This document shows, piece after piece, positions 1,388 through 19,679 of a DNA stretch of 53,221 bases. Position numbers and translations under genes: made by a program. The stretch is from a virus (Duplodnaviria; Caudoviricetes): positions 1 through 53,221 of IMG/VR virus record IMGVR_UViG_3300011422_000008; one strand, 5' to 3'. The notes under the pieces are model-generated. The model made no database searches. It had not been told where the DNA came from and saw nothing but the letters and a program-made list of their open reading frames with translations. The stretch's first letter is position 1; the number at the start of each line of letters is the position of its first letter.

Positions 1388-2461
1388 ATGGCACCACGCA
1401 TCTATTTCGGTGGAGCTGACGAGCAATCGCCAATTCCGGCACAGAGTACTTCCGACTGGAACACGGTTTATCCTCCCGAGGTTCAGGCTGAAGCTTGGAA
1501 ATTCGAAATGGCTAAGCGAGCCGCCGACCGCCAGCGCGAGCTCGAGGACATGATTTTCCGCGAGAGCCAGAACCAGAAGATTGAGGACGTGACCAAGGCC
1601 GTTGACGCGGCTCAGCGGTTCCAGGCTCAGCGGCAGTACGAGAGCTTGGTTGCCAACGGGACGAAGCCAAGTGTTGCCCTCGCGCAACTGGCGCCGAAAC
1701 TGTTCCGGTCTCCCGCGGGACTCGGACCGATCTTCCGTCCCCAGGTTCAGAGGGTCATGAACGTTGCCGGCACCGGTTACCAGGAGCAGGAGGATGGCAC
1801 CTGGAAGCCATTCACGCCGATCAAGGCGCCAGTGGTCAAGGATTCGACCGCGGCATCTCTGAAGAAGAGGATCGACGCAGCTCAGGCAGAATTCGACAAG
1901 GCCCAAATGAACGCGACGGCGCGCCAAGCAACCCGGGAAGAAGTCACTCCTGCAGTACCGGGAAGCCGCTTCTGGGGCATCGGTCCCAAGTCGGCGGGGA
2001 CCCCGGCCATCACGAACCAGATCCCGATCTTCCTCAATACGACCAAGACGGATGAGGCCGTAGCCCTCCGGGATGCCGCCAGGAACCGGTTGAAGCAGGC
2101 TCAGACCGAATACGCGGCTTACATGCAGCAGGCGACCAACGCGGGGCCGGCTGAGGCCCAGGAACCTCCCCCAAGGCCACTCCTTACAGGCCCTCCAGGC
2201 TCGATAGGCGGGGCGATGTCTCCTCCCGCCACTCTGAGCCCTTCAGCGGCTAATCCTCCTGCAGGCGCCAGCGCAGCGCCGGGGATTGCCGCTATAGCGC
2301 CTCCTGGGACCAATGCGCCGGTACCAACGCCAATTGTCCGCCCTCCTGGCCCTCCGGCGAGCGGAACCGGGCTCAAAACCAATGAGGTTTTACGCCGCGT
2401 CAACGGTAAATTGGCCATTTTCGACTCCAAGACCCGGAAATTCCTCCGTTATGCCGATTAA
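1388..2461 (+). CDS. Putative internal virion (ejection) protein
   Basis: ATG after GAAAGGA; coiled-coil N-terminal half and Pro/Ala-rich tail; synteny. Confidence 0.55.
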   Translation: MAPRIYFGGADEQSPIPAQSTSDWNTVYPPEVQAEAWKFEMAKRAADRQRELEDMIFRESQNQKIEDVTKAVDAAQRFQAQRQYESLVANGTKPSVALAQLAPKLFRSPAGLGPIFRPQVQRVMNVAGTGYQEQEDGTWKPFTPIKAPVVKDSTAASLKKRIDAAQAEFDKAQMNATARQATREEVTPAVPGSRFWGIGPKSAGTPAITNQIPIFLNTTKTDEAVALRDAARNRLKQAQTEYAAYMQQATNAGPAEAQEPPPRPLLTGPPGSIGGAMSPPATLSPSAANPPAGASAAPGIAAIAPPGTNAPVPTPIVRPPGPPASGTGLKTNEVLRRVNGKLAIFDSKTRKFLRYAD

Positions 2462-5400
2462 AGACGAAGTTCTGGTAGCAAGGCCGCTTCCGGTAACGTT
2501 ACCTGCCTGGGAGGACTCCGAGCCCGTCGATGTCCCACAATGGGACGATTCCGAGGAGGTTCCGACACTCAAGATTGAACCCTGGCAGGAGCCCGGGCTC
2601 ATCCAGATACCCGATGCTCTCGCGCCGGTTGCTCCCCAGATAGCGGTACCGGCTGAATCCCGCACCGAACAGCTCGCCAGGGTGATTCATGAAGCTGGTC
2701 CGCGGGGAAGCGAAGCCCGGGAACGGGCTGCATTGGCGGGAAGGTCTTTGCTCGAGCAAGAGGGGTTCCAGGCATTGCCAGTCGGCGAGAAGGCCATGAG
2801 TGCCGCCGAGGCCATTGCTCAGGAGGTTGCCAAGACACCTGGGCGCCTGATGCGGGGTGGAGCGGTCCAGGCTCAAGTGTTGCCTCCTCCGCGAATGGAA
2901 GAGCCCGGGGTCCGGATGCTGCCCAATGTTCCTCTCCGTCAGGAATGGGAAGTCAAAAGTCCTACCGAGCGGGCGCAAGCGGTAACCGGCAGTGAACTTT
3001 TCAAGGCTGGTCAGGCGGTTGAACAGGCTGCGGAGCGCGCGCACCCAACAGCAGCCGGCAGCGAAGCAAGCTTTTGGTGGGGTGATGTTCCACGTGGAAT
3101 AGGCTCCATGGGCACCAGCATTGGAACCGGGCTTGTCGGCGGTCCAGCAGCCGGTATCGGCGTGGCTACGATCCTCGAGACCATGGACGCCTTTGATCAG
3201 GAAATGGGACGGCAAGTCCGTACTGGCGAACAGCCAGACCCGGGGAAAGCCTGGGCCAAGGCGACCGGTTACGGGGCATTGACCGTGCCGATTGAATCCG
3301 GGCTTGGTGTAGGCCGCTTGATTCGGAATATCACCAAACGCTTTGGCCGAACAGGAGCCGAAGAGGCTTTGGATCTTCTCAGGCGCAAAGGTAAGAACGG
3401 GTTGACTGAGTTTGCGAAGAATCGCGCGAAGGATGCAGGACTCAACGCAGCTCAGGAGGGCATCGAAGCTCTCTCCCAGGATCTCATTGTCGAAGGGGAA
3501 GCAGACTGGGCGAACGTGGTACGTAGCGCCGGAGCTGGCGCCGTTGCCGGCACAATTGCCGGAGGAGCGGGCGAAGCGGGTGCACGCGGAGCTCGCCGCA
3601 TCATCGGTCCGCCTCCGTCTTTGGAACCTCCGATTACTGGCCGCGACCTTCTCCAGCGAGAAGGGGCGATTCCTCCATTGCAGGCAATCGAACCAACAAC
3701 AGAAAGGACTCCAGATGATACGCAAGGTGAAGAGCGGGTACCGGGTAGTCAGCCACAAGGGCCGCAACCTGGGAACGTCCCGATCGTTAGCGGGGGCCAA
3801 ACGCCGCCTCCGGCAGGTGGAATACTTCAAACACCTACGCCGCCGTTAAAGCCGATCAAAGTCAAATTCAACGGGCACTATGAAGCTTTCGGGAAAGTGC
3901 CCGCGTTTGACCTTTACACGACTGTTGAGGAAGGGAAGAAAGGGACAACCGCAACGCTAGAGGAACTCCGAAGGCAAGGGTTCGACCCGCAGATAATTGC
4001 TGAACCTCCTCCTCCGGCTGTGACGCCTCCGAAAGCTCCGGAGCCGTCGACCGATACGGTCCGCGTCTATCACGGCGAGGAGGCCGGCTCCGGAGCGAGC
4101 GGTTCATGGTTCACCATCGACCCGAAGAGGGCCCGGACTTTTGGTAAGAACGTTTCTTTCGTCGACCTCCCTCGGGACGTGTACGAGCAGCTCCGGAAAG
4201 AGGCTGAAGCCAAAGGCACGCCGGAAAAGGATCTGACCCTCCCGGATGAATGGGTGAAGAAAGGCCAACCGATCGAGATTGAGGAAACCGTTCATGACCT
4301 TGATGCTGAGACCGAGTACAAGCCGAGCGCGACTCTGGGGCCGGTTGATGGCTCGCCGGAGTACAACGCTCTGCCCATGGGAGCAAAGAGCTCTATCGGA
4401 GAATTCGAGATCAATCAGAAGATCATCGATACCGGCTTGCATCCTGATGGCAAGAAAGCCACGAAGAAACAGATCGAGGAGCTGAAGCTTCGCCAGGATC
4501 AGGTCCGTAAGAATTTCGAGCGCAATCGAGCGGTTCCTATCGCGGAGCTGTCCACTCCGGATCTTCTCAAGATGGCGCGAGGCCTTGGGATAAAGGTCGA
4601 TGAGGAGAGCATCATGCTCGAGCACGTTCGGAATCCGCTTATTGCTCGGATAACCGAGCTCGAGACGAAAGGCTTGCTCGATCGAGAAGCGGCCATGAAG
4701 GCCGGAGCTATTCCTCCGAAGGCTCCAGAAGTTCCTCCTGTTGCTCCGGCTGAAACGAAACCGGCTCCGGCTGCAACAAAAGCTCCCAAAGTTGAAACGG
4801 TTAAGCCTGTTTCTGAGCCAACTTCCGCGGAGCTTGAACCTTGGCTGAAGGTCCCGGAAGTGGACGATTCCCAGGCCAAAGAGGCAGCGAACTATGCGCG
4901 CCGACAAGTGGAAGCTCTCCGCACTCAGTACAAGGAGCTCGAGCAACAACGGATAGCTCTCGACAAGCTTGTCATGACCGGGAGCAAATTCCGCCGTCAC
5001 ATGAAGCGGTCCGCGCGGAAGAAGGACATCGATGCTTTCCGGGAAGTCCAGAAGAAGCAGCAGGACGTTGAGACTCAGATCCGCGCGATCGAGAATGCCA
5101 GCCGCGGGGATGCTGACGTAACGGAACGAGCTATGGAAGCTCGCCGAGTCAATGATGCATCAAGGACTCCCCTGTCTCGCCTGGGCGCCAGAATCAACCT
5201 GTTCCATGCATCGGGTGAGAAGGTGCCCGCTGAGGTAGAGCGGATCTTCATCCAAATGACCCGGGCTGAAGTTCAGAAGCGGTTTCCGGATCTTCGACCG
5301 CAAGAGCTCGAAGCCATGGGCCGGGAGATAGAGCGAGCCGCTCGCCTGGGCGATGACCTCAAACGGGAATTCGAAATCAATCCCGCTCTGAAGGGGCCTT

Positions 5401-8400
5401 TTGCTGGACGCCGCGCGGAACTGGCCAAGCACGTTCAGGACCTCCGCAATCAAGGTAACTGGAATCTCTGGCCGGAGGAACTGATCCGGAAGTTGGAAGA
5501 GAAGAGCCGGAGCTCGCAGCCGTACGGAGAGAGGGATAAACCCCTCCCTGAGCTCTCCATTAAGGAGCTCGAGGAGCTCAAGGCCGAAGCCTCTGAAGCT
5601 GCCGAAGTGGCCGCGGGCAAGGCTAAGGCTATCGAAGAGCTCGCCGCCAAGCAGAAGGCCGCGGATGAAGCCGAGGCTCAGCGCCTCCTGGATGAAGCTC
5701 AAGCTGTGGTCGACTCTCAGCCGAGGACCAGGAAAGCGACCGCGATTAAGGAGGAGCTCATCGACCGCATCGAGGAGCAGATGGACAAGACCATCGCCGC
5801 GGCCAAGGTAACGCTCGTGAAGAATGCGGAGCTAATCGAAGGCGCCGAATCTTATAGCGCCACTGCGGAATCCGGAGGCAAGTTCGTCCAGGGTACCATT
5901 CGCGAGACTCCCAATGGCAGGTTCGAGGTAACGGCCAAGGTTACCGGGAGCAAAAACCCAATCAAAGGACTGGTGGATACCAGGGCCGAAGCAGAGCGCA
6001 TCATCAAAGTGATGAGTGCGGATGCCTCTGGCCGTGCGGTCATTGCCGTTCCTGGGGATGGCATTTTCACGCTGCACCGGAACGGGGAGAATCTCGCTAA
6101 CCTCTGGCAGCAAGCCCGTTCAATTGTTACGAGTGCCACGCCGACCGGGCCGAAAGCTCCGGCTTCTGGAAGGCCCAAGGCAGCGCCGAAGCTGCCGAAA
6201 ACTGTCGATGTCAAAGCCGCTATCCTCATCATGCGGAAACAGATTGTGGACCGGAAGAGCGGACGGCCTACGCTTTCTGACGTCTATAGCGATGGCAAGC
6301 ACGTCTATGCGACTGATGGCCGAGTGCTCGTTATCATCGACGCGGTTCAACCCGTTGGCGGGCCGGAAGGCTTTCCAGTCGAAGCAATCAAAAAGGATGT
6401 CTGGCCAGATGAAATGGAAGGCCAACCTGCCTCCGTGCCAACTGAGGAGCTTTGGCGGATTAGCCGGTTGGCGAAGAGCCTCTATTGGAAGGACAGCATT
6501 CCCAGGGTGCAACTCTTCGTCGACGACAAAGGGAACATTGCCGGCGAGTCCATGGACGCTGAAGGCAATGCTGCCGGGTGGGGCGACCCTCGAGGGAAGC
6601 GGTCCCTGGGATTCTTCGACTCGGAGTATATCGGTTCGCTCGCGGAGATTGCCCGGGCTCTTGGTCATGCAACGGTTACGCTCCAGGCTGGAGTGAAGGG
6701 AGAAGGCAAGCAAATGTCTCATCCCCTCGTCATGAAGGCGCCGGGGATTCGCGCGCTGGTTGGCAACGTGCGGGACATTGAGCGCGAGGCTCCGAAGTCG
6801 ACCAAGGCAGAATTGCCCGAGGGCAGAGCAGAGCTCGAAGCGTTCCTCCAAAAGACCCGCGATGATCTGAAGGTTTTCCAGGAGCAAGTTAAAAAGGTGA
6901 ATGGTGAGGAAGTGGGCCCGGTTGCGGCTCGCGACCAAGCCAAGATTGATATTGCTCGAGCTGAAGCCAAGCTCGCGAAGCTGCCGAAAGAGGAACCAGC
7001 CGCGCCGGCAGAAGAAGAGGGCGCCACTCCCGAGCAGATAGACGCTATCATTGCGCGTTGGGAGAAGAAAATATCTCAGCTCCAGGACGAACAGCAAAAG
7101 CTTAATCCAAGGCAACGCAGCTTCCGTGCCGTAGCGAAAGATAAACAGAAGCGCATAGGCGAAATTGCCGCAGAGATTGATGCAGCCAGGAAGGAGATCG
7201 AAAGCCTGAAGTCTCAGCGCGGTAGCCGTGGCGGTGGGGCCAAAGCCTACGCTGCCGGGGAGCGGATGCCTCCTCGGAAACCATTCAACATTTTCACGGC
7301 GACAGATGCCGAGCTGGATGCTCTCCACAAAGAGCGCTTCGGTGAAATGGGCGGGGAATTCGGGATGGCCTATGCTGGCCGCGAGGCCAAGATCCGCGAG
7401 TTTGCCAACTTTGAAGAATTCAAGGCGTGGCTCGATGCTCGTTACGCTGAGCGGAACCTCGAGCACATGCAGCGGGCCTATGCTGAGGCCGATGGCAAAT
7501 GGAAAACGAAGTACATCAAAACCGTCAATGCCGACCCGGCAACTGACCAGCTCAAGCGGGACGTCATTGCCCATATCGCAACCGGGGCGCCTCTGCCTCC
7601 GGGATTTGTTCCGGTTCCTCCAGCCGCTCCTCCTCCAGGAGCACCTGGGGCAGGCGGAACGACGTACCAACAGCCTCCTCCCCCTCCTCCCCGGGAACCA
7701 ACGGAGTACTCGAAATTTGACATTACGGCTCTGACTCAGCTTTTCCGCTATTTCAGCCGCTTTCCGCAGATGAACGCGCGACTGATGAAAGCCTATGGTC
7801 AATTTGTGCCCAATACTGGGGCCGTGGAGCTGAAGGAGCGGCTCTTGTGGGATACGAAGCTCGCGACCAGGGTTCTCTCTCACGAGATTGGGCATTTCGT
7901 CGACCTCATGCTGACCCCGGTTGGTTGGGGTGCCAGGGACTTTGCACGCCGATTCGCTCCGCTCCGTGATTTCAAAAGAGCGGTTCGCGACCGGAAGGAT
8001 CTGAATCAGGCAGCGAAGGCTCTCTCAGCGGTCTGGCGTGGAGCGTTCTCTCCTACCAATGCGTACCGGAATAGTGCCGAGGAGCTCTTCGCGGATACCA
8101 TGAGCGCTCTCCTGACAAACCCTGAAATGGTGAATCAGCAATTCCCGGTTATTCATGACGCCTTCGAGCGGTTCCGGGCTGACAAGCCGGCCTTCCGGAA
8201 TGCTTACTCGTTTCTCACGAGCTGGCTTCGTGGTGATGAGATTCCGGACCAAATCCTCAAGCAGCAGGCTGAGGCGAATAAGCGGACATTGAACGACCTC
8301 CTCCAGGAGGACACGACCCCCAAACAAAGCTATATCGACCAGCTTAAACAGGCAGTCGTTTCAATTTGGTATCCGATCTATGCCATCGAAGGCAAACCCA

Positions 8401-11198
8401 AGGCGATTGGCGAGAAGATTATCAGCAAACTGGAGCGCTCTCACGTTTGGGCGGACGTCCAGAATGCTCTGTTTTACGATGATTGGCTCAGGCGGGTTAT
8501 CCCAAATCTAAAGAAGGTAGATCCGTCGATGGAGAAGGCCCGGGCTCTCTTCCATTCCTTCATGTTCTCCGATCGCGTCATCAAAGAACGCCGTGCCGGA
8601 GGCCAGTGGATTGAACAGAATCCGGAGCCAGCAAGGGCCATGCTCGAGGAGCTCGTTAAATATCCGGAGCTATCCAGTTATCGGGCTCAGCTTCAATCGG
8701 CGACCGATGACGCTCTGTACGATCTGGCCGCTCAGATGATGCGGACGGCTCATGACCGCGGGCCCAGGTTTATCCGGGAAGTCGATAAGGCAATTGACCG
8801 GCTCGCCCTCGGAGTTGAGGGGGATGCGGTTGTCCATGCATTCAACGTTCGCGGGAAGCTCCTGAACCCTGGGGGTGTCACTCCTCAGCGCGCAGCTCAG
8901 ATTATCTCGACCATCCGATCGCGACTCACGCCGGAGCAATTCGATGCCTTGAAAAAAGGCGCCGATGAATTCCGGGCCATGGTCTTTGATGTCACGCGCA
9001 AGGCTCATGATGAGGGATTAGTCTCCGATCGGACCTGGACTGAGATTGTTGAGCCGAACGCCGGCAACTACGTCCCGTATGCCGTTCTGGACTATTGGGA
9101 AGGCAAGGTTCCTGCAGTCGTTCCGCAAGCCGGCACAGCTCGCGACGTTGCGGACGTGGCGCTGGCAGCTCACATGAAGGTTGCCAGTCTCAATACCTGG
9201 AGGCAGAGCCAGAGGCAGATTAAACTGATTCAGCAAGCGTATCAGAATGGCGGCATCCCCGTTCTTCCTGGCCGAGCGCTCGAGCACTCCTCTGATATTG
9301 AGAAGGTGCGGAAAACTGCCGGGAAAGATGACATCAGCCGCGCGGTCATGTGGGTAAACGGTCGACCTCGGGTAATGGAATTTCCCAATGATCCGCACAA
9401 GGTAATTGAGGATGCCCTCTCGCATCCGGCTTTCTACCATCATCTGCAATTGCTCACGAGGTTGAATAAGATCACCCATAACTTAATGAGCATCTACACC
9501 ACGTTCAGTCCAACTTTCATGGGGTACCGCAACCCCGTTAGGGACGTTCGGACCAGCGCAACCCGTATTGGATTCCGAGCGACCGCTGGCACGACGATGC
9601 AGGCGATTGAACTTGGTAAATTGGCTGCAAACTATGCTGAAGCTGCTTTCGGTGGGGAAATGAATCCCGTTATCCGGGATCTGGTCGAAAGAGAAGTACT
9701 CATGCCGCCCAGGCTTGCGACCTCCGTAGTCCGAGACCAACAGAACCTAACGGAACTTATCCAGAATGGCGCAATTCTGGCATTTCACGCGCGCCGGTTG
9801 AAAGGTGAAACCTGGAAGTGGTACCAAGGGGGGGAACCAGGGCGAAAAGCAACCCAGAAAGCTGAACAGGTTTTTGCCGCGTATGAGGCTTTTGCCAAGA
9901 TCCAAGCGTACTTTTCTGCTAAGGCCAAAGGACTTTCTGAGGCTGAGTCGGAGGCTGTCGCGCGGATCGCCGGCATCCCCAATCCTGGGGTCATGGGCAA
10001 GTGGTCAACGCCGATGGAGGTTTTCCTGCCATGGTTCCGGGTTCACATCCAGGGGCTACGGGCTGATTTGGACGTCTTTCGGGATCCGAACCTGAATCGC
10101 GGTTTCATTACTCGTATCGCTTCCTTTGTTGTTCTTCCGCGCATTGCCAAGGTTGCCCTCGGAGCCGGTCTGGCGACCGGGCTCATCAAATCCCTCATCC
10201 CTGGCAAAGAGGATGACGATGATCTGGTCCTGGGCGAATTCTTCCGCCGTGTGAGTCCGTACAAGATGGCTCTCGACGATATTGTCCCGATTGCCTTCTA
10301 CGATCCGAGGACTGGCAAGTACCATTACCTCTGGGAATTCAAGCACGGTAAGGACGTCCCGGAACACTACGAAGCGGTCTCCTGGCGGATTCCTGGCTCT
10401 GAGCAGGATAGAATTTGGGGTACTCTCACCTATCAGATGCTCTCCGGGCTTCCGATGACCAAAGAAGCGCTTAGCCGGCCTGGGAATGGGCTAGTGGAGA
10501 ATATGGGCGCTTGGCTGCGGGATTATGCCGCTGTCGGGGTCAATCCGTTCTACGAAACCGGTCAGAACGTTTTCCAGGGGTCGATGTTGGGCAAGAATCC
10601 GGAGGATAGCTTTACTGGTCGACCAGCATTCAACCGGGAGTTCTTCGGCGCCGGTGGCAAGGAACGGGCTCAGGCGGTTGCTGGCTATACCATGCAGCGC
10701 TTCGGTGACGCCGGCTATCTTGCCGCCCTCTCCTCTGTGAACCTCCGGCTCCTCGATGAACGAGTCTTGAACGTGCTCCAGTCTAAGATGGACGGGGACA
10801 AGCAAGCTTTCGTGAAGCGGATACCGGTTCTCCGTTCCGTTTTCTCGTACGATAATTACGCCCGCTACCGGGCTGAGCGAAACGTGGAGATTGAGCAACA
10901 GGCTATCCGCGACCGTTCCAAGCTCGTGATGAGTCCCGAGGTTCACGCCATGTATCAGTACTACTGGCGGAACCAGGATCGGGAGAAGCAGATGGACCGG
11001 ACTGAACTTCAGCGGTTCAATGTTGCGAAGGCCTGGGTGAATTCCGCCTGGGGCGACCTCAAAACTCCAGGAAGCCTTTACTCTAAGGCGGCTCACGCTG
11101 TCGGACCGGACGGCTCAGCCATGGCAAAAGAAACCGCGCGGAGAGACATCGATGCCATCTCGCGCGGTTACGTGCTCCGCTTCAAAGCAGTGAAATAA
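2451..11198 (+). CDS. Giant polyvalent/ejection protein (~2915 aa) with ART-like, beta-clamp-like, zincin HExxH and LPD38-like regions
   Basis: ATG at 2451 overlaps the upstream gene end. Motifs RVYHG..GSWFT, DVYSDGKHVYATDGRVL, HEIGH..EELFAD and C-terminal WRIPGSE. Confidence 0.8.
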   Translation: MPIKDEVLVARPLPVTLPAWEDSEPVDVPQWDDSEEVPTLKIEPWQEPGLIQIPDALAPVAPQIAVPAESRTEQLARVIHEAGPRGSEARERAALAGRSLLEQEGFQALPVGEKAMSAAEAIAQEVAKTPGRLMRGGAVQAQVLPPPRMEEPGVRMLPNVPLRQEWEVKSPTERAQAVTGSELFKAGQAVEQAAERAHPTAAGSEASFWWGDVPRGIGSMGTSIGTGLVGGPAAGIGVATILETMDAFDQEMGRQVRTGEQPDPGKAWAKATGYGALTVPIESGLGVGRLIRNITKRFGRTGAEEALDLLRRKGKNGLTEFAKNRAKDAGLNAAQEGIEALSQDLIVEGEADWANVVRSAGAGAVAGTIAGGAGEAGARGARRIIGPPPSLEPPITGRDLLQREGAIPPLQAIEPTTERTPDDTQGEERVPGSQPQGPQPGNVPIVSGGQTPPPAGGILQTPTPPLKPIKVKFNGHYEAFGKVPAFDLYTTVEEGKKGTTATLEELRRQGFDPQIIAEPPPPAVTPPKAPEPSTDTVRVYHGEEAGSGASGSWFTIDPKRARTFGKNVSFVDLPRDVYEQLRKEAEAKGTPEKDLTLPDEWVKKGQPIEIEETVHDLDAETEYKPSATLGPVDGSPEYNALPMGAKSSIGEFEINQKIIDTGLHPDGKKATKKQIEELKLRQDQVRKNFERNRAVPIAELSTPDLLKMARGLGIKVDEESIMLEHVRNPLIARITELETKGLLDREAAMKAGAIPPKAPEVPPVAPAETKPAPAATKAPKVETVKPVSEPTSAELEPWLKVPEVDDSQAKEAANYARRQVEALRTQYKELEQQRIALDKLVMTGSKFRRHMKRSARKKDIDAFREVQKKQQDVETQIRAIENASRGDADVTERAMEARRVNDASRTPLSRLGARINLFHASGEKVPAEVERIFIQMTRAEVQKRFPDLRPQELEAMGREIERAARLGDDLKREFEINPALKGPFAGRRAELAKHVQDLRNQGNWNLWPEELIRKLEEKSRSSQPYGERDKPLPELSIKELEELKAEASEAAEVAAGKAKAIEELAAKQKAADEAEAQRLLDEAQAVVDSQPRTRKATAIKEELIDRIEEQMDKTIAAAKVTLVKNAELIEGAESYSATAESGGKFVQGTIRETPNGRFEVTAKVTGSKNPIKGLVDTRAEAERIIKVMSADASGRAVIAVPGDGIFTLHRNGENLANLWQQARSIVTSATPTGPKAPASGRPKAAPKLPKTVDVKAAILIMRKQIVDRKSGRPTLSDVYSDGKHVYATDGRVLVIIDAVQPVGGPEGFPVEAIKKDVWPDEMEGQPASVPTEELWRISRLAKSLYWKDSIPRVQLFVDDKGNIAGESMDAEGNAAGWGDPRGKRSLGFFDSEYIGSLAEIARALGHATVTLQAGVKGEGKQMSHPLVMKAPGIRALVGNVRDIEREAPKSTKAELPEGRAELEAFLQKTRDDLKVFQEQVKKVNGEEVGPVAARDQAKIDIARAEAKLAKLPKEEPAAPAEEEGATPEQIDAIIARWEKKISQLQDEQQKLNPRQRSFRAVAKDKQKRIGEIAAEIDAARKEIESLKSQRGSRGGGAKAYAAGERMPPRKPFNIFTATDAELDALHKERFGEMGGEFGMAYAGREAKIREFANFEEFKAWLDARYAERNLEHMQRAYAEADGKWKTKYIKTVNADPATDQLKRDVIAHIATGAPLPPGFVPVPPAAPPPGAPGAGGTTYQQPPPPPPREPTEYSKFDITALTQLFRYFSRFPQMNARLMKAYGQFVPNTGAVELKERLLWDTKLATRVLSHEIGHFVDLMLTPVGWGARDFARRFAPLRDFKRAVRDRKDLNQAAKALSAVWRGAFSPTNAYRNSAEELFADTMSALLTNPEMVNQQFPVIHDAFERFRADKPAFRNAYSFLTSWLRGDEIPDQILKQQAEANKRTLNDLLQEDTTPKQSYIDQLKQAVVSIWYPIYAIEGKPKAIGEKIISKLERSHVWADVQNALFYDDWLRRVIPNLKKVDPSMEKARALFHSFMFSDRVIKERRAGGQWIEQNPEPARAMLEELVKYPELSSYRAQLQSATDDALYDLAAQMMRTAHDRGPRFIREVDKAIDRLALGVEGDAVVHAFNVRGKLLNPGGVTPQRAAQIISTIRSRLTPEQFDALKKGADEFRAMVFDVTRKAHDEGLVSDRTWTEIVEPNAGNYVPYAVLDYWEGKVPAVVPQAGTARDVADVALAAHMKVASLNTWRQSQRQIKLIQQAYQNGGIPVLPGRALEHSSDIEKVRKTAGKDDISRAVMWVNGRPRVMEFPNDPHKVIEDALSHPAFYHHLQLLTRLNKITHNLMSIYTTFSPTFMGYRNPVRDVRTSATRIGFRATAGTTMQAIELGKLAANYAEAAFGGEMNPVIRDLVEREVLMPPRLATSVVRDQQNLTELIQNGAILAFHARRLKGETWKWYQGGEPGRKATQKAEQVFAAYEAFAKIQAYFSAKAKGLSEAESEAVARIAGIPNPGVMGKWSTPMEVFLPWFRVHIQGLRADLDVFRDPNLNRGFITRIASFVVLPRIAKVALGAGLATGLIKSLIPGKEDDDDLVLGEFFRRVSPYKMALDDIVPIAFYDPRTGKYHYLWEFKHGKDVPEHYEAVSWRIPGSEQDRIWGTLTYQMLSGLPMTKEALSRPGNGLVENMGAWLRDYAAVGVNPFYETGQNVFQGSMLGKNPEDSFTGRPAFNREFFGAGGKERAQAVAGYTMQRFGDAGYLAALSSVNLRLLDERVLNVLQSKMDGDKQAFVKRIPVLRSVFSYDNYARYRAERNVEIEQQAIRDRSKLVMSPEVHAMYQYYWRNQDREKQMDRTELQRFNVAKAWVNSAWGDLKTPGSLYSKAAHAVGPDGSAMAKETARRDIDAISRGYVLRFKAVK
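3715..3849 (+). CDS. Small basic protein (44 aa) nested out of frame in the giant gene
   Basis: AGAAAGGA then ATG; MIRKVKSGYRVVSHKGRNLGTSRSLAGAKRRLRQVEYFKH resembles a small phage protein family recalled as free-standing. Confidence 0.7.
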   Translation: MIRKVKSGYRVVSHKGRNLGTSRSLAGAKRRLRQVEYFKHLRRR

Positions 11199-11219
11199 AC
11201 CACAACCGAAAGGCTCGCT

Positions 11220-11264
11220 ATGGCCTGCAAAAAGAAAAAAGGGAAGAAGCGAAAAGGCTACTGA
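11220..11264 (+). CDS. Lysine-rich micropeptide MACKKKKGKKRKGY
   Basis: GAAAGG RBS 7 nt upstream; lies at the end of the late operon. Confidence 0.5.
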   Translation: MACKKKKGKKRKGY

Positions 11265-13591
11265 GCCGCTTCATTCTCAGGCTTGGCCCGGACTCCCATT
11301 GCCTTCAGGACCTCCGGGCTGAGCTGTCTTTGGTACCGGACGCACAGGCGCCGGCCAAGGGCTGCTTGCCCAGGAGTCAGATTTCCTCGAGCTGCAAGCT
11401 GATGGCCAATCGTGGTGTCGACTTTGGAGAACCCCGCTCCGTCCAACGCTTGAGCTCCGTCACAGTACAAAGCCAATTGTCGAAGGCCGTTGTGGGCCGC
11501 AGCTATCTCGGTGGACGTCATGAGCAGTCCCTCCTCCTGGATTTCGGTCCGCTTCCCCAGTGGCTTTGCCGGAGCGAAAACTGGCTCCGCTGCCCAGGCG
11601 CCCGGGTCAATGTCCAAGGCTGCTTCGATGATTTCCTGTTTCTCGATCGTGGTCTTGATCATCTTGGCATCCATGGTGCCAGGGATAACATAATGCTTCA
11701 CGAGCACGTTATCCTTCTGCCCGATACGATGGGCCCGGTCCTCCGCTTGGCTCATCTTTCCCGGGGCCCAGTCCTGTTCAGCAAACACAACTAAGTTAGC
11801 CGCGGTCAGAGTGAGGCCCTCGCCGCAAGCGCGAATGGAACCGAAAAATTGCCTGCACTTCGGATCTGTCTGGAACCTGTCACAAATCCCCTGGCGTTCT
11901 TCCGGAGGCGTCTCCCCGGTGATGAGAACCGAGCCAGGAAAAGCTTTGTGCAACGGCTCGAGCACGTCCCGGTGATGACCGAACACGAGAATTTTCGAGC
12001 ATTCCTCCAGCTCATCCTGGAGCATGGGAATCATGGCTGGCACCTTGGCAACCGCGGTATCGTGTCGCACCTTGGCAATCTCTGTGAAGGCTACATGCGT
12101 GCTGGCCATTTTTTTAACGGCTTCCTTGAAAGCTGTGTCAGAGTCCGAGGCCCGGGCAACCTCCAGCTCTGCCTGGGCCGCGATTAAAGCTTGCTCATGC
12201 CGCTGATAGGCTTTGCGGTCCTGTTCGATGATTTCCTCCATGCCCTCCGTGTTCATTTCGACGACGCCCCGAGTCTTGGGAGGCAATTCCTTCAGTACGT
12301 CTTTCTTCAGGCGCCGGATCATGCACGTTTCGCGGAGGATCCGCTGTAGCTCCTCGAGGTTGCTGGCTCCGCTGGTGTCTAGGTGCCCGCTATCCTGATT
12401 CATGGCGCAATACCTCTTGGCAAAGCTCCAGAACGACCGCCAGCGCTTAGGGTCCAGGAAAAACAGGGTGCTCCAGATTTCCTCTGGACGGTTCTCAATC
12501 GGGGTTCCCGAAAGGGCGATTCGCCGCTTCGCCGGCAACGGAGGGATGATTTGCTCGCCGGCAGCTTGAGCTTTCTTGGTGGGAACGTAACCGATTACCG
12601 CCATGGCCCGCTTCGTGGTCCGGTTCTTGATGTTCGCCGACTCATCCAGGATTACCAGATCCCATTCCGCGGCTCGAAGGGAATGCGTGTGCTTGGTCAG
12701 CACGTCATAATTGATAATGACGACATCGGCATTCCGCGGCCAGTACTGCGCTTCGGCTATGCCAATCGTGAGTTTGTCCACAAGCCACTTCTCGAGCTCA
12801 CGGCGCCAGTTCTCTTTGAGACTGGCTTTGGTGACTACCAGAACGCGCCGGATTTCCGGAATGCAGTTGATCACCCCTATCGCTTGCAGAGTTTTCCCGA
12901 GCCCCATTTCGTCAGCTATGTAGCAGCCGCCGCCTTGCGTCGAATCCATGCGGCTTTCATTTTCGCCCTCACTTGGGAAGGATGAGTTTTGCCGAAGAGC
13001 CAAGTTTTCTGTCCGTAGTTGTGATTTTTCGGTCCTAATTGAGCCAGCCTCATTTTGAGCTTCGTTGCCTTGGAGTGATGTTTCCCGAGCATTCCTACTC
13101 GTGTCCCCACACAGGCTATTGACATTTTTCGACGGGTTTCCGGGGAGCGCTTCATGCCGATCATGGCAAGACTGATTTTGATGCGTGTTGATTTTGGTAG
13201 GTGCTTCATAGCCGAAACAGTTCAGTGCAAATTTAACTCCTGCTTTTTGGAACGGGAAAAAAACGCAACCTGGAGGCGTTGGTATTTCGATTTCAGCATC
13301 AGCCGCGCGACTCGCCTTCAAGTTGGCTTCCCGCTTCGCTACGTCCTGTTCGTCCAGGTGTTGCCACCAACAGACCTGCCAAGCATCGGTTTGAAGGTTC
13401 TTAGTGACACTGAGGCCGCGGCTCTTGAGCTCATCCTTGTGTTGGGCCCAGAACGTCCAAAAGACTGAACCCTCCGGAGGCTCCGATTTTCGAAGGATAC
13501 GGGGTCCGTACTTGGTTTGGACTTCGCGCGCTTCCCCCCAGGGGAGGAGAGTCTCGATCGCCGGCATTGGCACTGATGTGAGTGTGTTCAT
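11258..13591 (-). CDS. SNF2/HARP (SMARCAL1-like) helicase/annealing ATPase with ~98-aa insertion
   Basis: ADEMGLGKT, ILDES, LSGTPIEN, RRLKKDVL, GEGLTLTAA and QAEDRAHRIGQ motifs; start follows AAGGA RBS. Confidence 0.92.
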   Translation of the reverse strand: MNTLTSVPMPAIETLLPWGEAREVQTKYGPRILRKSEPPEGSVFWTFWAQHKDELKSRGLSVTKNLQTDAWQVCWWQHLDEQDVAKREANLKASRAADAEIEIPTPPGCVFFPFQKAGVKFALNCFGYEAPTKINTHQNQSCHDRHEALPGNPSKNVNSLCGDTSRNARETSLQGNEAQNEAGSIRTEKSQLRTENLALRQNSSFPSEGENESRMDSTQGGGCYIADEMGLGKTLQAIGVINCIPEIRRVLVVTKASLKENWRRELEKWLVDKLTIGIAEAQYWPRNADVVIINYDVLTKHTHSLRAAEWDLVILDESANIKNRTTKRAMAVIGYVPTKKAQAAGEQIIPPLPAKRRIALSGTPIENRPEEIWSTLFFLDPKRWRSFWSFAKRYCAMNQDSGHLDTSGASNLEELQRILRETCMIRRLKKDVLKELPPKTRGVVEMNTEGMEEIIEQDRKAYQRHEQALIAAQAELEVARASDSDTAFKEAVKKMASTHVAFTEIAKVRHDTAVAKVPAMIPMLQDELEECSKILVFGHHRDVLEPLHKAFPGSVLITGETPPEERQGICDRFQTDPKCRQFFGSIRACGEGLTLTAANLVVFAEQDWAPGKMSQAEDRAHRIGQKDNVLVKHYVIPGTMDAKMIKTTIEKQEIIEAALDIDPGAWAAEPVFAPAKPLGKRTEIQEEGLLMTSTEIAAAHNGLRQLALYCDGAQALDGAGFSKVDTTIGHQLAARGNLTPGQAALGRRLCVRYQRQLSPEVLKAMGVRAKPENEAAQ
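12916..13209 (-). CDS. NUMOD3-repeat DNA-binding protein nested out of frame in the helicase insertion
   Basis: GMKRSPETRRKMSIA, GKHHSKATKLKMRLA, KNHNYG and FGKTHPSQVRAKM motifs; no nuclease domain. Confidence 0.75.
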   Translation of the reverse strand: MKHLPKSTRIKISLAMIGMKRSPETRRKMSIACVGTRVGMLGKHHSKATKLKMRLAQLGPKNHNYGQKTWLFGKTHPSQVRAKMKAAWIRRKAAAAT

Positions 13592-13677
13592 TGTTTCCTT
13601 TCCATGTTTGCTTGATGGAGGGCCGAAATCTCCCGCTCTTTGGCCCGGATGATGGCCTCGAGTCCGGTAGCGCTCAT
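13588..13677 (-). CDS. Small hypothetical protein (29 aa)
   Basis: MSATGLEAIIRAKEREISALHQANMERKQ; ATGA-coupled to both neighbours. Confidence 0.4.
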   Translation of the reverse strand: MSATGLEAIIRAKEREISALHQANMERKQ

Positions 13678-14138
13678 GGCAGGATCTCCTGCTGGCGCCA
13701 TCCTGCACCCTCTTCCCAGGCCAGCCACCAGGAAATTTCAGGGTAGGTAGATGCTGCCACCTTCAGATTTTCGAATCCGCCGCGGAATGCGTGGGGGCCC
13801 TTCACTTCCCAGGCAAACTCCCTGCCTTCGTTCTTCAGCAAAGCCGTGAAGTCTGGCTTGTACCAGATACCATTTGCCAGCCGGTAGCGCTTCGCCTGGG
13901 CCCGGATGTGATAGTCTGGAAAGCAGCGCTGTAACCGGGCTTGGAATCGCTTCTCCAGCTCATTGAGGAGCGGCTTCGAATCCTGGCGCAAGCGCTTGGC
14001 CTTCTCGGTTACTTTTGATGCGACTACAGCCTCCGCGGACTCCAGGACCTTGCCCGCAACTTCGAGGTTCCGTTTCAATGTGCTGAGGCTCGCGCCCGGG
14101 AAGAGCTGCTTCAATTCCTCAATGGTAATCTGTCTCAT
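13674..14138 (-). CDS. PD-(D/E)xK nuclease (DUF1064-like)
   Basis: NELEKRF...YKPDF...EVKG motif. Confidence 0.75.
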   Translation of the reverse strand: MRQITIEELKQLFPGASLSTLKRNLEVAGKVLESAEAVVASKVTEKAKRLRQDSKPLLNELEKRFQARLQRCFPDYHIRAQAKRYRLANGIWYKPDFTALLKNEGREFAWEVKGPHAFRGGFENLKVAASTYPEISWWLAWEEGAGWRQQEILP

Positions 14139-14187
14139 ACCTTCCATTCTGCGATGTCGTGTTTCAGTGTATAATGGCCGAGAGTTT

Positions 14188-14733
14188 TCATATTTCCTTT
14201 CCGACCTTCATGCGCCCTTCGGCAGAGCTGGTTAATCCACGCTCCAGAAGCTCCTCCATAGCTTGATCGATAGCTTCCCTGGCTGTCTGAGCGAACCCAT
14301 CGACGCAAAGGACGCCTATCCCGCTCGTGTTGTGCAACCGATAACCTCTGCCACTGGATGATTTCCTCGCCGCCCAGGGTTGGCCGTTGGACTGTTTCTC
14401 GAGCCAGTCCAAGCGCTGTGTGTCTGTGATCACGTTATTTGGCCCAACGTTCCATTCACCCAGTTTGGCTAAGAGCCCGAGGAGTCGAGCTGCTTCGATT
14501 TCCTCGTGAACCCAATCATGATGCTGGAGGCATATCGCTGCCCAAAACTGTACCGCGTTGAGGAGCCAATGCCCAGGACCTCCCCGCCCGTAAATGTGAT
14601 GAGGGGACTTATGCGCCGGCCTTTTGCAGCCTGGAAACTGGCAGAAGGGGTGCTCTTTGTGCCAGGGCGGTTTAAGTCTCTCGTACTCAATAAGGACAGT
14701 TTTCATTCTCGTACTGACTGGGCTTATACTCAT
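14188..14733 (-). CDS. HNH-type nuclease with C-terminal extension
   Basis: CQFPGC...HHIYGRG...AICLQHHDWVH. Confidence 0.7.
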   Translation of the reverse strand: MSISPVSTRMKTVLIEYERLKPPWHKEHPFCQFPGCKRPAHKSPHHIYGRGGPGHWLLNAVQFWAAICLQHHDWVHEEIEAARLLGLLAKLGEWNVGPNNVITDTQRLDWLEKQSNGQPWAARKSSSGRGYRLHNTSGIGVLCVDGFAQTAREAIDQAMEELLERGLTSSAEGRMKVGKEI

Positions 14734-14738
14734 ATTAA

Positions 14739-14891
14739 TTAGGATTTGACGTGTTTCCATCGCTTGCCTGAAATGACCTCAGACACCAAGCCAACTGCTA
14801 GAGAATACTTTCGAGCAAGGACATTGATACTGGCTTTTCGGCTCCATGGTCGATGCTCTGCTCTGATAATTCTAACCAAGGAATCGGCCAG
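14739..14891 (-). pseudogene. Remnant of an HNH homing-endonuclease C-terminal HTH
   Basis: LADSLVRIIRAEH...LARKYSLAVGLVSEVISGKRWKHV preceded by an in-frame stop. Confidence 0.55.
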
Positions 14892-14901
14892 TCAATAGTT
14901 T

Positions 14902-15213
14902 TCACATTGGTTGTTTGGATGGGTCTTGAATCATTTTCAGTTCGAGGAATGTTCGCGCCATGGAGATAGCGAAAGCGGTTCGTGCTCTTTGCACATGCTC
15001 ACAGTGTTTCCGCGCAAGCACCGGGATTCCCGATTTCAGCAGTGGGCCAACTCTGAATTCAAAATCCTCACAGGAGCACCAGCCCGCTCCATCAAAAGCG
15101 GCTAAATCCACTCGATGTTTTATATTCCTTCTGCTTCGGCTTTGGACAAAATAGACCAGTAATTCACCTTCCAGTGAATCAACGCCAGGGCAGAGTGAGT
15201 TAAGGCGAATCAT
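14902..15213 (-). CDS. SWIM zinc-finger protein
   Basis: YFVQSRS..HRVDL..WCSCEDF...CEHV. Confidence 0.7.
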   Translation of the reverse strand: MIRLNSLCPGVDSLEGELLVYFVQSRSRRNIKHRVDLAAFDGAGWCSCEDFEFRVGPLLKSGIPVLARKHCEHVQRARTAFAISMARTFLELKMIQDPSKQPM

Positions 15214-17807: not shown

Positions 17808-19679
17808 TTAGAGGGAAACTATCCGGAACCCCTGGCGGGTGCTCAATGCTGAGTACGCCTTGGGATCGACGTCGACCAGGATCGACTGGTCGATGATTTT
17901 GGACTCGACCAGGGAGAGCATCCGGAGCGCTACATCCAGCTTCCGCTTGCCGTCCAACCGGCCTAGTTCATCCAGGATTACGAGTTTTGTCGGCGCCTCG
18001 TGACTGAGCGCGACCCCGAAGCCGGCCAGAGCCAAAAGCTCCTCCGTTCCGCTGAAGGCATCGAATGAAATCCAGGAGCCGATCGGCGCCTGACACCCCA
18101 TTTGAACATCCTGATTACTCACACGCCGGCCTAAACCCCCGTCGACAAACTCAAGTGGGCTATTCAGAAGCGCATCCGTGAAGTGGCGCGCGGTCTTGAG
18201 GACCGTCCCGAAGGCTTTATTCACAAGTTTCTCTTGTTCCTCCTGGACGATCTTGATTACGGCCTTGTAGGTCTCCGCGCGACACTGGGCGAGGAGCATT
18301 TGCTGTTCGAGGGATTCTTTCCGACCGCGATCCTTTTGCCAAAGCTCGAAGCTGGTTTGCTTGGCCTCCAGTTCCGCGATCGTGGTTTTGAGGGCGGCGA
18401 TCTTGATGGAGTTTGCGCCGGCAACCTTATCCCTCGCGGCTAGCTTCTCATCGACCTGGGCGATCAATTGCAACAGCCCGTTGAGCTGATTGATCAGCCC
18501 GCTCAACCTGATTACATCGGTGAAGGCCTTGCTCCAAGCCTGGAGCTTCTTCAGTTCCAGATCCTTTACTCGATACGATTCCTCGAGGAGCTCGCGCTCC
18601 TGCACCAGGGAGGCAGCTTTGGCGAGCAGCTTATCCATGGTTGGCTTCTTCCAGTTGGCTCGCTTGGCTCCGCATGTTGGGCAACAGTCGGATTTCTCGA
18701 GCTCCGCGATCCGTCCCTGGAGATCCTCCGCTGTCGTGAAAATCTCTTTGAGCCGATCGTTTGTCCCGTCCAGAGCCGCTACCAGCTCATCGATTTTGTC
18801 CATGGCCTCAGCATAGTCATCGTTCGACTGGCTCGATTCGCCCAGGATGTCCCTGGCCTTTTGCAGGTCGACGGCGTATTGCTCCGCGGTCTGGAACGAC
18901 TTCAACCGGTTCGCGAGCATGTCCCGTTGTCCTTGCAGTCCCTCGATGGGACCTCCAAGCTCGACCTCCAGCCCGGTTAGCTGAGTCCGGGCCGCGGCGA
19001 GCTCCTGGCTGACATCCTTCTGGAATATCGGTGCTCCGTCCCCGCGGAAAGCAGCGAAGGCGCCTTGCGCTACTTTGGCTTCATCGCTTGCCGTTTTTTG
19101 GCGCACCTTCAGTCCGTCCAGGAGGAGAGCAATCCAGCTCGGAACCGTCACAACCTTGTTATTGTCCATCCACTCATTCACGATGCCAAGGATCCGCTCG
19201 CACTCTGTCAGGGGAGAAGCCTGGACCTCGGAGAGCCGGTTTTTGATGATGCTCGGAGAGAAGGTCTCCGGTTTGATGTCGCATGCCTGGAACACGGTTT
19301 GAATCTGTTCGGCGCCAGTCTTGGCAAAGAACAGTTTCGGTTCCATGAGGAGTTGAGGCATGGCGATGTCCGGGGAGGCGTTGCCGACCACCGAGACCTT
19401 GCCCGCGGCATCACGCTTCCATTGCCAGACGATTTTACGCCCATTCTCGAGTACGAGGTTGATCCCCATCGTGCCGGCCTGGGTTGGGTTCCCTGCCAGG
19501 GCATAGATACCACGCACCCCGAGGGGAGGAGGCAGGTAGCCGGTGAGGGCGAGTCGAACGGCCATCGGAATAGCCGTCTTATGATTGAAGTTGGCTCCCG
19601 TCACGAGCGTAACGGGCGCCAGCTCAATGTCCGCACTGTGGCCCTTAAAGTTCCGATAGGCCAAGTGTGTGATTCTCAT
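17808..19679 (-). CDS. Rad50/SbcC-like ABC ATPase
   Basis: NFKGH, GANFNHKT, coiled coils, CPTCG zinc hook, FSGTE signature and ILDELGRLD. Confidence 0.85.
   Translation of the reverse strand: MRITHLAYRNFKGHSADIELAPVTLVTGANFNHKTAIPMAVRLALTGYLPPPLGVRGIYALAGNPTQAGTMGINLVLENGRKIVWQWKRDAAGKVSVVGNASPDIAMPQLLMEPKLFFAKTGAEQIQTVFQACDIKPETFSPSIIKNRLSEVQASPLTECERILGIVNEWMDNNKVVTVPSWIALLLDGLKVRQKTASDEAKVAQGAFAAFRGDGAPIFQKDVSQELAAARTQLTGLEVELGGPIEGLQGQRDMLANRLKSFQTAEQYAVDLQKARDILGESSQSNDDYAEAMDKIDELVAALDGTNDRLKEIFTTAEDLQGRIAELEKSDCCPTCGAKRANWKKPTMDKLLAKAASLVQERELLEESYRVKDLELKKLQAWSKAFTDVIRLSGLINQLNGLLQLIAQVDEKLAARDKVAGANSIKIAALKTTIAELEAKQTSFELWQKDRGRKESLEQQMLLAQCRAETYKAVIKIVQEEQEKLVNKAFGTVLKTARHFTDALLNSPLEFVDGGLGRRVSNQDVQMGCQAPIGSWISFDAFSGTEELLALAGFGVALSHEAPTKLVILDELGRLDGKRKLDVALRMLSLVESKIIDQSILVDVDPKAYSALSTRQGFRIVSL

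Follow-up and report, generated by a model that had tools for sequence, protein, structure and literature searches.

A fragment of a GIY-YIG/NUMOD3 homing-endonuclease gene probably tolerated as a read-through loop in a phage SNF2-family helicase

The virus record IMGVR_UViG_3300011422_000008 (Duplodnaviria; Caudoviricetes) is a 53,221-bp stretch of phage DNA with an estimated completeness of 95%. The whole stretch is referred to here as the window. The minus strand of the window encodes an SNF2-family helicase whose gene carries an insert of about 95 codons between the Q motif and motif I. The same DNA, read in the +1 frame, contains a 97-amino-acid open reading frame (ORF) with three NUMOD3 repeats, called here the nested ORF. 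Probably the insert is an immobile fragment, of recent arrival, from a homing-endonuclease gene of the GIY-YIG/NUMOD3 type and is tolerated as a read-through loop of the helicase.

The following course of events is proposed. An internal piece of 276-285 bp from a GIY-YIG/NUMOD3 homing-endonuclease gene would have lodged in the helicase gene, in a surface loop predicted to run from the helix that follows the Q motif to the strand ahead of the P-loop. Because the insert's length divides by three and no stop interrupts the helicase frame within it, ribosomes would read through and produce a complete helicase enlarged by a hydrophilic, unstructured loop of ~95 residues. The piece would be immobile, having no nuclease with which to home, and would have survived through a rare in-frame, stop-free configuration that left the helicase working. 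The NUMOD3 frame would be intact from the recency of the event, not from a need for the ORF. The piece may be what an imprecise deletion left of an endonuclease gene that was once complete; alternatively, repair of a break at a hairpin-prone site may have captured a fragment. The analysis shows the homology of the piece, its boundaries, the open frame and how improbable it is, the lack of a nuclease, an intron or an intein, and its uniqueness among relatives; that ribosomes read through, that the helicase works, that the event is recent and that the nested ORF has no function are what we infer.

Origin and boundaries of the insert

The nested ORF lies one base downstream of the helicase frame. 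A preliminary description of this DNA had placed a 97-amino-acid frame at 12916-13209, from an ATG to a TAG, and the ORF listing returned it exactly there, on the minus strand. Its assignment to NUMOD3, made in the same description, was upheld by the Pfam model PF07460 (E 4.6e-11; 42.9 bits against a cut-off of 20.4). The model matches three stretches that share one reading frame on the genome. The low score is a trait of the subfamily, two members of which score 50 bits (P0034) and 58 bits (P0015). The nested ORF also matches the homing endonucleases of PHROG 314 (E 6.7e-7).

Homologues of the nested ORF were collected by a full HMMER scan of 1.84 billion representative proteins, and number 2007 at E<=1e-3, of which 55 reach E<=1e-10. 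The majority have 200-400 amino acids and are matched in their C-terminal halves. Among the ten best matches six carry GIY-YIG and NUMOD3, one HNH and NUMOD3, and three NUMOD3 only. Residues 7-96 of the nested protein align without a gap to residues 152-241 of P0015, a 244-amino-acid GIY-YIG protein, with 46 identities in 90 positions (51%). Because this alignment covers residues 152-241 alone, the insert represents only the DNA-binding tail of an endonuclease, homologous to the C-terminal DNA-binding half of GIY-YIG enzymes. The endonuclease derivation that had been proposed for it thus holds. The homology ends at WIRRK, and the last three nested codons together with the TAG fall on the native helicase codons GGC TGC TAC ATA GCT. 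A GIY-YIG catalytic domain was not found in the nested ORF, and its model, PF01541, had no match in the 53-kb record at E<=1. As judged by homology, the insert is an internal fragment of an endonuclease gene, without the ~140 codons of the nuclease half and without the original end of the endonuclease. Homing by the fragment is unlikely because the nuclease is missing.

The nested protein shows no visible decay: it shares 47/97 and 44/97 residues with members of its subfamily, which share 44/102, 47/103 and 55/104 with one another. Its AlphaFold2 model has four helices, with a predicted local distance difference test (pLDDT) score of 83.4 and a predicted template modelling (pTM) score of 0.36, and its isoelectric point is 12.0. 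Compared with the PDB, the sequence found no match at E<=1 and a Foldseek search with the model none at E<=10. The phage record holds no second NUMOD3 copy. None was found in five related viral records by a search that does recover the copy in the window.

The host gene is a minus-strand ORF (11258-13708) that opens with GTG. Its likely start is the ATG at 13567 (MPAIETLL), a choice supported by an identical 769-amino-acid gene call, P0277, and by the consensus of homologues. The product has the SNF2 N-terminal and Helicase_C domains (Pfam SNF2-rel_dom, E 2.7e-38; Helicase_C, E 1.9e-13), motifs Q and I-VI and a predicted two-lobe fold, which place it in the SNF2 helicases, and it matches the DNA helicases of PHROG 62 (E 2.6e-107). 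Comparison of its model with the PDB by Foldseek returned Ino80, ISWI, Chd1 and Rad54 (best E 5.2e-24). In alignments with homologues all the helicase motifs are present and intact. The HARP domain PF07443 had no Pfam match in the window helicase at E<=1, and the name HARP, used in the preliminary description for its homologues, is not confirmed for this protein. The domain is present in one listed homologue, P0262, and several homologues are named SMARCAL1-like by the Joint Genome Institute (JGI).

Homologues without the insertion place it between ...FALNCFG and CYIADEMGLGKT. The insert then comprises helicase residues 129-223, that is 95 codons; should the GGG run be native, it shrinks to 92 codons (12935-13210), an option to which loops such as ...GGPGGC... 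in homologue P0186 point. Both lengths are multiples of three. The extra segment noticed earlier is therefore real, and its size is corrected by these alignments from ~98 residues. The G+C content of the insert, 50.2%, is lower than that of the phage (56.6%) and falls at the 5th percentile of 285-nucleotide windows, which is consistent with a foreign and recent origin.

The insert is absent from all seven homologues in an eight-sequence alignment. Among the 123 best database homologues, the nearest of which is 67% identical, 114 have both the Q motif and motif I, and none of these has the insert. The two motifs are 18 residues apart in 82 of the 114, 21-29 apart in 31 and 41 apart in one, against 113 in the window helicase. 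Both motif patterns could be recognised in 33 of 88 related viral loci, all spaced 75-108 nucleotides and all free of the insert. These surveys gave no sign of mobility or recurrence. Judged from such alignments, the insertion site is a loop of variable length throughout the family and the insert itself is unique to the lineage of the window.

Other searches had the same outcome. A word-index protein search with helicase residues 105-250 gave six matches, all to the flanks only, and none when directed at shorter proteins. Viral contigs searched with the helicase gave two loci, both insert-free, and metagenome contigs gave six, none of them close. Viral contigs searched with homologue P0166 gave none, and with P0172 they gave L098 and L099, both without the insert. 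Genome contigs searched with the nested ORF gave one distant match. Among GenBank phages, tblastn found one weak, unannotated match (E 5e-3) and blastn over 50,697 records found none. The exact nested ORF is missing from a collection of 15 billion proteins. A loop in P0166 that is 23 residues longer and contains an NTH..Q stretch resembling the insert was considered as a relative and rejected by a shuffle test (P=0.51).

The window is a metagenome-assembled contig with a depth of ~7, the kind of record in which an assembly chimera or a sequencing error might create such an arrangement. This is extremely improbable. A contig of the source sample covers 12529-14800 and spans both junctions. Contigs of two further runs, X2 (12949-13318) and X4 (13146-13296), bridge the 5' junction without differences; the extra runs are of the same year and habitat, which limits their independence, and X2-X4 leave parts of the stretch uncovered. 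A second assembly (a 53,379-bp contig in ENA) encodes an identical 769-amino-acid read-through protein. A joined, inverted or insert-less form was not seen among the assembled contigs, a kind of data that drops rare variants.

Table 1. Positions of the helicase gene, the insert and associated features in the window
Feature	Position	Strand	Basis or remarks
SNF2-family helicase gene, 769 amino acids including the insert	11258..13567	-	Pfam, PHROG, identical 769-amino-acid call P0277, homologue consensus, AlphaFold2
Insertion in helicase frame, 95 codons (YEAPT...STQGGG)	12926..13210	-	Absent from homologues; no Pfam match; low pLDDT
Nested +1-frame ORF, 97 amino acids, three NUMOD3 repeats and C-terminal helix (WIRRK)	12916..13209	-	Pfam, P0015 alignment, AlphaFold2
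NUMOD3 match 1, partial, model positions 23-37	13120..13164	-	Genome HMM scan
NUMOD3 match 2, best, 28.6 bits, model positions 1-28	13003..13086	-	Genome HMM scan
NUMOD3 match 3, model positions 18-36	12958..13014	-	Genome HMM scan
Inverted repeat, left arm; holds nested ATG	13202..13215	.	14 nucleotides, 12/14 complementary to 12912-12925
Inverted repeat, right arm; native helicase codons C-Y-I-A-D; holds nested TAG	12912..12925	.	Pairs with left arm
Q-motif region (P-F-Q-K-A-G; Q116 at 13247-13249)	13238..13255	-	Q116, G119 invariant in two homologue alignments
Helicase motif I (D-E-M-G-L-G-K-T)	12890..12913	-	D228, G231, G233, K234 are invariant columns

The open frame and the predicted loop

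A frame-by-frame count of stops confirmed that the helicase frame is open throughout the nested ORF, as had been described. It has zero stops across the insert. The third frame of the same strand has nine, and all three antisense frames have stops. The two frames are both open over their whole overlap, as in an overprinted pair. The chance of this was estimated by fixing the NUMOD3 protein and drawing synonymous codons from phage usage. The simulated helicase frame was open in 1.7% of 20,000 draws, with a mean of 3.5 stops, and permutation of the actual synonymous codons also left it open in 1.7%; the earlier estimate of ~1% was of the right order of magnitude. The equivalent off-frame is open in 47 of 782 (6%) 98-codon windows of the phage's own genes. 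In seven natural NUMOD3-coding segments from six other viral contigs it contains 6-21 stops and is never open. An accident is an unlikely explanation of the open host frame. The 1.7% odds of an open frame, combined with the one-in-three odds of a suitable length, argue for selection on an unbroken helicase frame, in the simplest case at fixation.

The AlphaFold2 model of the helicase (82 sequences; pLDDT 85.4, pTM 0.81) positions the insert between helix 114-126 and strand 223-226. Model residues 143-219 have a pLDDT of <50 and no secondary structure, with flanks of >90. The insert peptide is hydrophilic, with a grand average of hydropathy of -1.37 and 39% S/T/N/Q. In the model the helicase appears to fold normally around an unstructured insert. 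Nor does it look degenerate, because its DESA and TKAS variants are common to its closest relatives. Decay had been suspected from DESA in place of DEAH and TKAS in place of CPAS and was rejected, since the nearest relatives have both. The variants mark a helicase clade that includes the window protein (11258-13567), P0159, P0174 and P0176, in which the DEAH box is consistently replaced by DESA/DESQ and the CPAS of motif Ia by TKAS/TKAT.

Several members of the helicase family carry unusual sequences. P0172, a homologue 65% identical and available as protein only, has after motif Ia an in-frame, low-complexity, junk-like stretch of ~170 residues that is missing in the others and may, from its sequence, be a second read-through insertion in this clade. 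Nine of the 123 homologues (P0167, P0169, P0174, P0176, P0212, P0243, P0246, P0248 and P0274) start at or just after motif I, for example with MGKTIQ..., and the contigs of some measure 35-52 kb. An inserted element may have split these genes near motif I, or the calls may just be truncated. An SNF2 homologue on another viral contig, at L032:3767-6835, has an intein of ~340 amino acids directly after the GLGK of motif I, with weak LAGLIDADG/homing-endonuclease matches (PF14528, E 1.1e-4; PF05204, E 3.1e-4), and the homologues P0191 and P0211 have intein-splicing matches at another site. The family is a repeated target of selfish elements.

Alternative readings of the insert

Several observations weigh against the proposed relic. 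Both the read-through and the non-use of the nested ATG are points that we infer; the sequencing runs listed for this stretch include no RNA run. The nested frame shows no decay, starts with ATG and gives a confident model, features that fit a functional ORF equally well. Codon usage singles out neither frame: the two open frames score -0.03 and -0.005, each lower than in 99% of true in-frame windows and higher than in 99% of off-frame ones, and the third frame of the same strand scores -0.575. The low pLDDT of the insert is in part, as a property of the model, a product of the few homologues in the alignment. A 151-nucleotide contig of run X3 that lies within the insert (13069-13219) is identical to the window, while the helicase contigs of the same run, one within 13069-13393 and one at 11760-11970, differ from it at 5/151 and 20/211 positions, mostly at every third base. 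Either two strains are present or the insert is more conserved than its flanks; the depth is ~2 and linkage is unphased. If all the X3 contigs come from one strain, then the insert is more conserved than its flanks, which is the opposite of what is expected of a neutral loop. The inverted repeat at the junctions, described below, is also unexplained by a simple relic model.

Some of these features speak for the alternative of true dual coding, in which the helicase is read through and the 97-residue NUMOD3 protein is in addition made as a nuclease-free DNA binder, which might, for instance, repress transcription or block the cognate homing site. An intact ORF with an ATG start and no decay relative to its family, the confident four-helix model with its high isoelectric point and the intermediate codon scores of both frames all agree with it, and the X3 pattern lends it weak support. 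There is also a precedent in CapR, a repressor related to a homing-endonuclease domain (PMC8096241). Conservation, however, cannot be invoked for an insert that is present in no relative, and a scan of 12700-13800 for sigma-70-like promoters gave 0 sites. The nested ATG lies in a long-range stem in both the minimum-free-energy (MFE) and the centroid fold. The ends of the ORF are set by off-frame stops of the host sequence and its last codons are host-derived. A fragment captured recently would look intact anyway. The position of the ATG and TAG at the edges of the insertion, stressed in the preliminary description, is correct and largely accounted for, since the native +1 flanks close quickly (upstream by a TGA four codons before the nested ATG) and both codons lie in the inverted repeat. 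A Shine-Dalgarno sequence is missing before the nested ATG, as had been remarked; its absence is uninformative, since most of 38 putative starts in this phage have none. Dual coding is on this evidence unlikely. A domesticated DNA-binding regulator, as the preliminary description suggested, is a hypothetical role for the nested product. A version that assigns the module a role, with the NUMOD3 protein conferring immunity to re-invasion by occupying the target near motif I or regulating transcription, is a little more doubtful again; the junction repeat would then belong to the capture or the control of the piece.

The helicase might also be split or dead, with an N-terminal part that contains the Q motif and a C-terminal part of 563 amino acids (starting MDSTQ) as separate products or as a pseudogene. 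The open frame would be incidental, as in the 'genes in pieces' split by endonucleases. The JGI gene call does begin the helicase after the insert (P0003), and the homologues that start at motif I suggest that split forms may exist in the family. Friedrich and colleagues, in 2007, reportedly found that endonuclease-split genes can keep their function, which was counted in favour. A split, however, leaves the divisible length and the stop-free frame together as a coincidence of ~0.6% (one third of 1.7%), the other gene caller reads through (P0277), and every helicase motif is intact. This alternative is improbable.

The two arms of the inverted repeat span both junctions, with 276 nucleotides between them, and inside them the nested ATG mirrors the TAG. 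A complementarity of 12/14 was reached by 3 of 7556 control pairs of windows 285 nucleotides apart in the phage (P ~4e-4, post hoc). A 5-nucleotide direct repeat, CGGCT, overlaps both junctions. The arms pair in the MFE and the centroid RNA folds, and the stem is extended by complementary native flanks, so that the native site looks hairpin-prone. The repeat gives a hint that the piece was captured at a hairpin, in the course of repair or template switching. An invertible switch was considered and rejected: the inverted orientation puts stops in the helicase frame, and the contigs contain no strand-changing joints.

Terminal inverted repeats also call to mind a small non-autonomous element of the kind of MITEs (miniature transposable elements with inverted repeats) or Rickettsia palindromic elements (RPEs), with an endonuclease fragment as its core, inserting in frame. 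The 14-nucleotide repeat is of the expected type, and the size of ~280 bp and the in-frame read-through resemble those of RPEs as set out in PMC10969869. The element is, however, present in a single copy in the phage and was found nowhere else searched, where such elements are multi-copy. Its right arm consists of native, conserved helicase codons, and no target-site duplication was detected outside the arms. An element of this kind is still less probable than a split gene.

Removal or skipping of the insert, as a group I or II intron, an intein, a bulge-helix-bulge intron, by ribosomal bypassing or by paired frameshifts that would bring NUMOD3 into frame with the helicase, is highly improbable. 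The long-range stem that joins both junctions, the GGC codons on both sides of the insert and the inteins elsewhere in the family (at motif I in L032) could be taken to favour it. The view expressed earlier that neither a group I core nor an intein C-terminus is visible is, however, supported by each analysis made. Rfam found no intron over 11000-15000 at E<=1, only two weak, unrelated matches outside the insert. The RNA fold has a z-score of +0.98, with an equal or better fold in 84 of 100 shuffles. The insert is nearly all endonuclease coding sequence, which leaves no space for a ribozyme core. The helicase-frame peptide matched 0 Pfam families, whether of the Hint, the intein or any other type; its first residue is Tyr and its last are Gly-Gly-Gly, not the residues of intein ends (Cys/Ser first, His-Asn at the end). 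In the bypass of T4 gene 60 a stop stands right after the take-off codon and the gap is ~50 nucleotides. Here TAT follows GGC, the host frame is stop-free and the gap is 276-285 nucleotides; 285 nucleotides far exceeds the known bypass gaps.

Known systems, phage context and significance

Insertion of an endonuclease gene into an essential gene of a phage, with neither intron nor intein involved, is reportedly exemplified by nrdA/mobE of phage Aeh1. In that phage a complete endonuclease divides the host gene into two ORFs, whereas in the window the ORF is continuous and the endonuclease is a fragment. The inteins of the helicase family resemble the insert in being selfish elements at or near motif I of SNF2 homologues, as in L032 after GLGK. 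They are in frame and remove themselves, and the insert has no Hint or intein features. The overprinted phage genes Rz and Rz1 have a similar geometry, one ORF lying wholly inside the other in the +1 frame of the same strand, as the nested ORF does in the helicase ORF. Both Rz and Rz1 products are conserved functional partners; in contrast, the arrangement in the window occurs in one lineage only and the product of its inner ORF is putative.

Homing-endonuclease genes pass through a cycle of invasion, fixation, degeneration and deletion or loss, as outlined in PMC2988022. Like such decaying genes, the insert is endonuclease-derived, has lost its nuclease and adjoins a highly conserved host motif. 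It differs in that the leftover is inside a host ORF and is, by the proposed reading, translated in the other frame, instead of being an intergenic or intronic pseudogene. In the open-access literature searched, no description was found of an endonuclease fragment read in the other frame within a phage gene.

Splice-free, in-frame selfish DNA has already been described, in the form of RPEs and intragenic MITEs; RPEs are ~150 bp long, have palindromic ends and are located in frame in protein genes, where they are translated unspliced at fold-compatible positions (PMC10969869). The insert resembles both in being in frame, bounded by an inverted repeat and in a surface loop. RPEs form multi-copy families with a conserved host-frame peptide of their own. 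The insert, in contrast, is single-copy, consists of a protein gene read in the 'wrong' frame and has host sequence as its right repeat arm. The suggestion in the preliminary description that the arrangement is a 'third mode of gene invasion' is accordingly not sustained: in-frame selfish DNA was already known, and the insert has no nuclease domain, is single-copy and occurs in none of the relatives.

If the nested ORF is expressed, CapR, a DNA-binding repressor of the Vibrio cholerae satellite PLE that is related to a homing-endonuclease domain according to PMC8096241, may serve by analogy as a model for its role. CapR is, however, a free-standing and experimentally shown gene, whereas the nested ORF is overlapped by the helicase gene and its product is putative.

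The phage is very divergent and comes from freshwater sediment. None of eight neighbouring ORFs has a Pfam family, and 7 of 10 large ORFs have no PHROG match. A plus-strand ORF of 2961 amino acids (2313-11198) takes up ~17% of the genome and has no Pfam family at E<=1e-3. A 623-amino-acid protein (17808-19679, minus strand) matches PHROG 77, an SbcC-like subunit of a palindrome-specific endonuclease (E 3.6e-11), and is of interest because the insertion site is hairpin-prone. Upstream of the helicase, a 190-amino-acid ORF (14188-14760, minus strand) has a Cys-x2-Cys ... His-His pattern that is HNH-like by eye, with no Pfam or PHROG match.

The arrangement is a single-lineage curiosity, an unusual and probably passive scar of selfish DNA. 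As such it would represent a rarely seen stage of selfish endonuclease genes, in which a dead fragment is absorbed into an essential protein through reading in the wrong frame, at a spot in the ATPase core that is normally ~18 residues long. It suggests that new disordered loops of enzymes can originate from foreign coding DNA. There is also a lesson for annotation, in that two gene callers differ on the helicase (563 against 769 amino acids), and such relics distort phage gene catalogues. The overlapping, still intact DNA-binding ORF offers a natural test case of whether such a frame is used. If it is functional, a new route to overprinted genes would be revealed, and dual coding, if true, would make this the first endonuclease-derived overprinted gene in an essential phage gene.

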